Part shown: piece after piece, positions 41,593-41,817 of the stretch
Position numbering within the stretch: position 1 is the stretch's first letter
Layout: each line of letters begins with the position of its first letter
Assembly (NCBI RefSeq): GCF_041886205.1
Contig: NZ_CP169031.1
DNA from: Escherichia coli
GTDB taxonomy: Bacteria; Pseudomonadota; Gammaproteobacteria; Enterobacterales; Enterobacteriaceae
DNA: 64,000 nucleotides
Direction: 5' to 3' (one strand)
Notes under the pieces: model-generated
Seen by the model: only the letters and a program-made list of their open reading frames with translations
What the model was told of the DNA's origin: nothing
The model's database searches: none
Position numbers and translations under genes: made by a program

Positions 41593-41786
41593 CCCAATTC
41601 GTGTTTTTCTTGCGGGTTCTTAATTAAACCCGCAAGAGCTCGTGGGGTTCCAAATGGCTAATATACTCCCCTTACCCATGCGCGACGATGCCGCCAAAAG
41701 TGATAGAGAACAGCCAGAAATAGATCGCGGCCATAATGATTTTGAATGCCGTGTTCATATTTTCAGCTCCTGTGATTGATTGGATA

Positions 41787-41817
41787 CATGCCGCGCCTTG
41801 CGGCATGTTTTTATTTT
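41787..41817 (+). terminator. rho-independent terminator downstream of hsdR
   Basis: Hairpin catgccgc/gcggcatg followed by TTTTTATTTT. Confidence 0.6.

Follow-up and report, generated by a model that had tools for sequence, protein, structure and literature searches.

A small open reading frame behind the C1-controlled pmgT promoter as a likely first cistron at the edge of the cargo-exchange region of P1-like phage-plasmids

In a 64,000-nucleotide (nt) stretch of Escherichia coli DNA (NZ_CP169031.1; hereafter the window, to which positions refer unless another contig is named), we analysed a 28-codon open reading frame (ORF) on the minus strand at 41672-41758, next to a type IC restriction-modification (RM) cassette. 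The ORF is best explained as the promoter-proximal cistron of the operon under the C1-repressed promoter PpmgT (Op88), an operon carried just after pap by every P1-like phage-plasmid, and as the fixed edge of a region in which cargo genes are swapped. We assign this statement as a whole, including the mechanism proposed below, a probability of about 0.6. In its best reading, the first cistron would encode a small membrane protein or act as a translated leader. The conserved unit, as predicted from comparative analysis, comprises a C1 operator with its promoter, a 5′ stem-loop, an unpaired CA-rich CCAAUCAAUCA leader, the ribosome-binding sequence GGAG and a small membrane protein with a single helix. 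The identity of the locus and its anatomy, taken alone, are held with high confidence.

The ORF lies in the PpmgT region of P1-like DNA

The window consists of P1-like (Punavirus) DNA. Megablast showed 95-97% identity to P1, P7, SJ46, RCS47 and others from 41668 rightwards, a homology that spanned pap (41857-42363) and pmgS (42437-43699); left of 41668, the same DNA was found in just two phages. The homologous segment of P1 (NC_005856) is the OpmgT (formerly Op88)/PpmgT region between pap and pmgT, and the order pmgS-pap-operator-downstream cistrons was present in the window. The conserved upstream neighbour, pap, encodes a HAD_PNKP-type 3′-phosphatase on the minus strand.

Read along the minus strand from 41857 to 41672, the locus began with the operator ATTACTCTAATAAATCT (41857-41841), followed by TTGATT (41841-41836), a 17-nt spacer, GAAAAT (41818-41813), AAAA, a GC-rich stem-loop with the sequence ACATGCCGC-AAGGC-GCGGCATGT (41808-41786), AT, the CA-rich motif CCAATCAATCA (41783-41773), CA and the Shine-Dalgarno (SD) sequence GGAG (41770-41767). 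After GGAG came CTGAAAAT and then the ORF itself, with its ATG at 41758-41756, 8 nt beyond the SD, 28 codons (MNTAFKIIMAAIYFWLFSITFGGIVAHG) and a TAA at 41674-41672. TTGATT and GAAAAT correspond to the -35 and -10 elements of P1pmgT (41813-41841), a sigma-70 promoter predicted in the P1 RefSeq record with a start at ~41806, and the stem-loop is located where the PpmgT transcript is predicted to begin. The operator, an asymmetric 17-bp site whose end overlaps the promoter, matched the consensus at 15 of 17 positions, overlapped the final base of the pap stop codon and was collinear with the annotated OpmgT/Op88 of P1; the window held 14 such operator-like 17-mers against 0.33 expected. Exact matches to the motif CCAATCAATCA numbered three in the 64 kb (0.10 expected), each of them on the minus strand, a count that was not attained in any of 100 shuffles. 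Thus, the 28-residue hydrophobic ORF, the strong SD, the recurring motif and the C1 operator at 41841 that the initial annotation had proposed were all borne out.

Compared with P1, the operator, promoters, hairpin, motif, SD and ORF were ~95-97% identical at the nt level, and their order and spacing were equal. The differences were a rare G4A change in this operator in the window and the presence in P1 of pmgT-pmgU-pmgV where the window has hsdMSR. The G4A change, at 41854, gives ATTACTC instead of the usual ATTGCTC; among 96 related loci, 3 carry this allele, and the remaining operator-like sites of the window usually have G here.

The ORF is present in P1 without the island

Direct comparison showed an identical 28-codon ORF in P1, closed by the same TAA and followed by GGGGGATGC, with the ATG of pmgT 10 nt on. 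The SD of pmgT shares bases with this TAA in the P1 lineage, and the window and P1 begin to diverge after TAAGGGG. The P1 RefSeq record has no gene annotated between the promoter and pmgT.

The initial annotation had considered that the ORF might be the truncated N-terminal remnant of a late gene that insertion of the island had displaced, which could be recognized by alignment with pmgT of P1. The boundary of the island does lie 4 nt after the stop codon, and the peptide corresponds to the N-terminal part of a 53-residue protein in distant relatives (see below). However, the island is absent from P1, P7, SJ46 and 74 of 97 viral contigs, and in these the 28 codons run to the identical TAA; pmgT lies apart, as an ORF of its own with another reading context. 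Because island-free P1 has an identical ORF with its own stop, the ORF is neither the N-terminus of pmgT nor a product of the island, and a severed late gene has next to no chance of being the explanation.

The peptide is small and hydrophobic, with a grand average of hydropathy (GRAVY) of 1.3 overall and 2.1 in the core, and a single transmembrane helix was predicted. From the first ATG of the ORF listing, an in-frame upstream extension (41759-41806) gives a 44-residue form, which is a 'membrane protein' in SJ46 and is also the form annotated by the Prokaryotic Genome Annotation Pipeline; in RefSeq plasmids it is the hypothetical protein WP_001312275.1. The ATG of this form (41806-41804) is located inside the 5′ arm of the hairpin and is restricted to the P1 lineage, being absent from the distant relatives described below (JK004, L114 and L125-L127). 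Since it lies within the stem and is confined to one lineage, the start of the 28-residue form is the better call, and the extension is probably untranslated.

The ORF was intact in 96 of 97 P1-like viral contigs from IMG/VR, and the sole broken copy carried foreign DNA inserted at codon 20. The region of the small ORF was also found in 868 plasmids and in 889 of 5426 complete E. coli genomes.

The ORF marks the edge of exchanged cargo

The joint with the RM island that the initial annotation had noted was sharp, with homology to P1, P7 and SJ46 resuming at 41668, 4 nt beyond the stop of the ORF. The 6.56-kb cassette (35112-41667) replaced exactly P1 84483-85928, which is pmgT-pmgU-pmgV. It carries hsdM (35587-37149, 520 residues), hsdS (37146-38354, 402 residues) and hsdR (38476-41592) in this order on the plus strand, and the 1038-residue HsdR matched HsdR of EcoR124I (PDB 2w00) over residues 1-1038 with 2278 bits. 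The small ORF is the only cistron left here behind PpmgT because the cassette, in the opposite orientation, replaced the genes that follow it. On the other side of the cassette, P1-type DNA with phd, humD (33173-33562) and the lxr/upf region reached 35111. The left joint at 35111/35112 reads GTGCTGGTG|AGCGTG, corresponds to P1 ~85929 and is located just before the upfM promoters; humD (Peptidase_S24) and an lxr region of the P7/SJ46 type were retained to the left of it. The two joints of the cassette showed no direct repeats.

The junction between hsd and P1 DNA is already known. According to the P1 record, the sequences that follow the hsd loci of EcoDXXI and R124/3 share 96-98% identity with its own segment, and type IC hsd loci flanked by P1 DNA were described in 1997, as indicated by Tyndall et al. 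(Mol Microbiol 23:729, as cited in reference 364 of PMC12707154). The interval from pmgT to humD is variable region 8 of P1-like phage-plasmids (PMC9603915). Like the type IC loci EcoR124, EcoDXXI and EcoprrI, the present one has an HsdR of the EcoR124I type and P1 DNA directly after hsdR. In contrast to them, the cassette sits here within a complete P1-like genome, as it does in 20 of 97 viral contigs.

Among the 97 viral contigs with enough flanking sequence, the context downstream of the ORF was of the pmgT type in 74, of the convergent hsdR type in 20 and different from both in 3. The hsd-type joint was found in 220 of the 889 complete E. coli genomes that bear the region. In other assemblies the conserved DNA ended at ...CATGGGTA|, with cargo joined at GGGTA| and the stop codon becoming TAY; this places the cluster of breakpoints no more than 6 nt from the stop of the ORF.

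About 280 plasmid records matched the region only partially. The listed ones, among which conjugative plasmids are frequent, retain nothing but 41660-41751 next to hsdR, a 92-bp fragment with the 3′ 80 nt of the ORF and without its start, SD or promoter. This relic is the piece that is flagged in the P1 record as identical to R124/3.

Distant P1-like phages carry a longer homologue at the same place

In Cronobacter phage JK004, the Pap protein was 74% identical. Behind pap in JK004 come a C1 operator and a GC stem-loop that is different, then GCCAATCAATCA in exact form, GGAG and the ATG of a 53-residue ORF (MHLIFKLAITAFYAWMLTVVITSFKPDANMKAS...). The annotated JK004 gene_94 begins at a wrong internal ATG (3620-3736 of contig L005, 38 residues); the conserved ORF starts at L005 3576, encodes 53 residues and has an SD 5 nt upstream. 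Four more members of 53 residues were found in other contigs (L114 and L125-L127), all with the gene order pmgR-pmgS-pap; P0022-P0025 are the 53-residue membrane proteins of phage-plasmids related to JK004. Arrangements of TTGATT or TTGTTT, a 17-nt spacer and a -10 element, equivalent to that of P1pmgT, could be read in JK004 and L125. In every member of 53 residues, the stop codon overlaps the next start (ATGA), compared to the 10-nt gap in the P1 lineage.

Among the 53-residue members, the ratio of nonsynonymous to synonymous substitution rates (dN/dS) was 0.22-0.39 at a dS of 0.4-0.8, a sign of purifying selection that a real coding gene would show. The P1 peptide aligned in register with the N-terminal helix of this family, with M1, K6, A11 and W15 invariant. 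No more than 0.02% of shuffles that preserve composition attained the ungapped in-register BLOSUM62 score (p at most 2e-4). At the DNA level, the P1 ORF was ~52% identical to the family; the proportion of synonymous differences (pS) was 0.65-0.78 and thus saturated, and that of nonsynonymous differences (pN) was 0.36-0.43. Between the P1 ORF and L114, residues N2, K6, Y13 and F17 were kept through synonymous codon changes.

The JK004-type locus thus resembles that of P1 in the synteny of pmgR, pmgS, pap and the ORF, in the operator and stem-loop, in the leader with CCAATCA and GGAG, and in a homologous N-terminal helix, and differs in that the P1 form ends after the helix. On this comparison, the ORF of the P1 lineage is a shortened variant of the family, a helix without the tail, rather than a full member. 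P1 itself, without the island, already carries the short form, so the shortening is older than the island.

Searches of Pfam, NCBIfam, PHROGs and PADLOC with the 28-, 44- and 53-residue peptides gave no match (E-value cut-offs of 1 for PADLOC and 10 otherwise). A word-based protein search with the 44-residue form returned only relatives at least 93% identical. When 1.84 billion representatives were searched exhaustively with a HMMER profile, the matches comprised a single true cluster besides two spurious ones, with no further family members, which indicates that the family is confined to P1-like elements. A scan of genome contigs with a Pap alignment found two E. coli loci only, and no JK004-type plasmids turned up when the plasmid collection was searched by blastn with JK004 DNA.

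A functional first cistron or a decayed relic

The main rival explanation is that the ORF is a decayed relic of the 53-residue gene. In this case no functional protein would be made, and the segment would be kept as a promoter, leader and ribosome-loading region, or by linkage. Most of the observations that speak for such a relic also weigh against the first-cistron reading. The hydrophilic C-terminal tail, SFKPDANM(K/R)AS..LGN.S.SY.CD, is the best-conserved part of the family and is absent from the P1 form. The alignment of the P1 lineage (96 copies, 46 haplotypes) had variable sites distributed 6:6:6 over the codon positions, with ~11 nonsynonymous and ~7 synonymous sites. C-terminal read-through and fusion are evidently tolerated, as stop-loss variants extend the ORF by 9-37 residues into unrelated cargo (L128, L129, P0009-P0013) and one of them forms a fusion with the end of a DUF551 gene. 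Furthermore, pap, pmgT, pmgU and pmgV were dispensable for lytic growth in a published P1 CRISPR interference (CRISPRi) screen. Relic status would also fit the conjugative plasmids among the matches listed that retain only the promoterless 3′ fragment at 41660-41751.

Other points against the first-cistron reading concern expression and sampling. The two promoters of the P1 record, P1pmgT and P2pmgT, are both labelled 'predicted', and a generic promoter scan missed P1pmgT and gave a weak, different candidate at 41885-41856 instead. In literature searches on the peptide, its accessions, pmgT and P1 transcriptomes, nothing about the small ORF or its expression was found, and the published P1 screens and transcriptomes do not mention it. 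In addition, the loci were retrieved with patterns that contained the motif, so its invariance within the P1 lineage is partly an effect of ascertainment.

Against decay, no frameshift or nonsense allele was found in the 96 aligned copies, in which the ORF was open throughout and the stop kept, and the one broken copy owes its state to a foreign insert. Each nonsynonymous allele was rare, with no more than 4 of 96 copies, and the single common polymorphism was synonymous (GCG/GCA at A26). The SD and its spacing were kept, as were the four residues preserved relative to L114 through synonymous changes. The 84 nt show little diversity, and in statistical terms no single one of these points is decisive. 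The polymorphism pattern fits weak purifying selection without proving it, and the coding signal within the P1 lineage is thin. On balance, we consider a relic unlikely and a shortened first cistron the better explanation.

The predicted leader combines a stem-loop with an open translation start

Folding of the stem-loop at 41786-41808 gave nine pairs with a free energy of -17.2 (z -3.1). A stem-loop was found at the same place in all three lineages, represented by the P1 type, by JK004 with L114 and by L125-L127, and in a paralogous module of JK004-like phages; measured against the predicted start sites, it begins 0-7 nt past the predicted -10/+1. The stem sequences varied among them, with compensatory changes between JK004 and L114 (GC to AU) and between L125 and L126 (AU to GC, together with two wobble changes), and the common stem polymorphism of the P1 lineage changes CG to UG. 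These stems were compared from individual folds, and their loop lengths differ between the lineages.

Between the stem and the AUG, the predicted folds of all three lineages and the paralogous module left 19-31 nt unpaired, including CCAAUCA(AUCA) and the SD. In both minimum free energy and centroid folds, the GGAG was mostly unpaired, and 17-31 nt upstream were unpaired as well. The motif CCAATCAATCA was exact in JK004 and L114 although the flanking untranslated region (UTR) was only ~72% identical. In L125-L127 it was shortened to CCAATCA, and GGAG was kept with its spacing in all three lineages. The natural reading, as far as predicted folds and comparison allow, is that the leader combines a 5′-terminal stabilising stem-loop with an unstructured, CA-rich translation-initiation region.

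In E. coli mRNA biology, 5′-terminal stabilising stem-loops of the ompA type and translationally coupled leader cistrons are established concepts. The present locus is similar in its 5′ stem-loop, its unstructured leader, its strong SD and its short ORF that abuts or overlaps the next start. The comparison takes its 5′ end from a predicted start site, and both stabilisation and coupling are presumed here by analogy.

Two further exact copies of CCAATCAATCA were located elsewhere in the window. One was in the 5′ leader of cra (26159-26169, minus strand), downstream of the annotated P3cre and 2 nt before GAGGTG-AAAA-ATG, which is the same arrangement of motif and then SD as at the small ORF. The other (24460-24470, minus strand) was located between c8 and the operator/promoter of ref. 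About 30 nt upstream of it was an A8 run with the hairpin GCCTGGC-aagga-GCCAGGC (24501-24519); read on the plus strand, this is a canonical terminator after the complement of the motif, with the geometry seen at 41773-41818.

The paralogous module was found in JK004-like contigs of IMG/VR (L115, L116, L118 and L119), of which L115 shares a contig with L114. At this second locus an almost identical unit is reused, with a C1 operator, the stem-loop GGCCGC-ACGCUU..-GCGGCC, CCAATCAATCA, AAGGA and an ATG. It drives a different protein of 50-53 residues (MKDF...) whose hydrophobic helix is C-terminal, and behind the gene come a second operator and a terminator. Local tblastn of the MKDF peptide gave no counterpart in the 64-kb window, and the module has none there. 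The C1 operators at 61488 and 10732 were without the module of stem-loop and motif.

The opposite strand reads as a terminator in the P1 lineage

On the plus strand, a consensus scan identified the stem-loop as a terminator-like site, with a 10-pair stem (six GC) at 41786-41808, the tail TTTTATTTTC with a T run at 41809-41818, and this was the only plus-strand site of its kind in 41000-42600. The initial annotation had drawn the hairpin at 41787-41817; a hairpin is present there, and its stem ends at 41808, the remainder being part of the T run.

hsdR stops at 41592, and the next hairpin (41608-41637, fold z -3.6) is borne by the island and has no U tail. The P1 stem-loop is thus the first canonical terminator after hsdR, which suggests that the 3′ UTR of hsdR is probably ~225 nt long (41593-41818) and antisense across the whole ORF. 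By sequence, the stem-loop most likely ends the hsdR transcript, and transcripts from PpmgT would conversely run past the ORF into hsdR in antisense orientation. This 3′ UTR is the only antisense RNA predicted at the locus, and as an antisense partner it would be a by-product of the orientation of the cassette and not a conserved antitoxin gene.

A small membrane toxin with an antisense partner had been the other suggestion of the initial annotation. Such a module would resemble type I toxin-antitoxin systems, with a 28-residue membrane-damaging toxin and a plus-strand antisense RNA that ends at the terminator at 41786-41818. The peptide agrees with this in its small size, its high hydrophobicity and its single predicted helix. 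In the P1 lineage, a canonical terminator on the plus strand directly follows the sequence complementary to the SD and motif, and in elements that carry hsd, the 3′ UTR of hsdR would be antisense to the ORF. With Rfam, the region gave only a GcvB-like match at an E-value of up to 10, on the plus strand at 41731-41814 and below threshold (20.3 bits compared to a gathering score of 42, E 0.08). What is matched is the complement of the CA-rich leader, rich in G and U, with the terminator behind it; the shape is that of an Hfq-type small RNA (sRNA) and is no evidence for one.

Several points speak against the toxin reading. No sigma-70-like plus-strand promoter was found in or near the conserved segment by the generic scan, which also missed P1pmgT. 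An A run precedes the stem in the P1 lineage alone, and the terminator reading of the opposite strand is thus limited to that lineage, although JK004/L114 and L125-L127 keep the sense stem-loop. The structure on the sense strand is therefore the conserved item. The SD was not sequestered in the predicted folds, no toxin or defence family was matched in the four protein collections searched above, and no Rfam family was above threshold in the region. P1 without hsd shows nothing annotated as convergently transcribed, and because the ORF is under a repressor operator, antisense control is not needed. The type I toxins Hok, Ldr, TisB, Ibs, ShoB and Zor are comparable in size, hydrophobicity, a single predicted helix and, at this locus, a predicted overlapping antisense transcript; the locus differs from them in its control by a repressor operator and in having no dedicated antisense gene, SD-sequestering leader or family match. 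Thus, the hydrophobic membrane peptide with a good SD was retained from the suggestion, the toxin and antisense parts were unsupported, and we regard a toxin-antitoxin module as very unlikely.

Proposed mechanism and significance

If the ORF is the first cistron of the PpmgT operon, inactivation of C1 would allow PpmgT to fire, and the 5′ stem-loop would protect the resulting mRNA. The open leader and the SD would support efficient translation of the mini-protein, which would insert into the inner membrane, and ribosomes terminating at the ORF could be passed to the next cistron.

A further possibility is that the operator, stem-loop, CCAAUCAAUCA, SD and mini-ORF serve together as a portable expression pad bordering the P1 cargo hot-spot and act as a C1-controlled antisense switch or through a trans-acting RNA. 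In the first version, in the ~20% of elements that carry hsd, the hsdR 3′ UTR of the lysogen would cover leaky peptide mRNA, and on induction PpmgT would fire into hsdR and lower restriction. In the alternative version, a plus-strand RNA with UGAUUGAUUGG and the terminator would act in trans on the CCAAUCAAUCA leaders of cra and c8-ref. Taken jointly, these proposals are speculative and improbable.

With the promoter-proximal cistron as the preferred reading, a candidate toxin-antitoxin system is removed, and what had looked like a junction ORF becomes a standard part of P1-like elements. The P1 reference annotation would then miss a conserved small gene, and the RefSeq start lies in a hairpin and is unconserved among relatives. 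The ORF marks, within a few bases, the fixed edge of the region in which pmgTUV, type IC systems and other genes are exchanged, an edge that is useful when mapping defence or resistance cargo in phage-plasmids. Finally, the conserved 5′ stem-loop and CA-rich leader, reused in JK004-like phages, offer a compact and testable candidate for a post-transcriptional element in a classic model phage.

Other features of the window and of related phages

In phages 673R5 and phi456, the hsd genes lie directly after phd. An extra ORF of 356 residues is located between hsdS and hsdR in phi456 (L004 7885-8955). A PrrC-like anticodon nuclease was considered for it, an identity that would have linked it to the neighbouring 3′-phosphatase Pap; the protein was a second HsdS (Pfam Methylase_S). 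At the gathering score, Rfam detected only three tRNAs and no C4 RNA in the whole window. The tRNA genes are on the minus strand at 55421-55493, 57133-57205 and 57211-57283 and presumably represent the tRNA cluster of P1.

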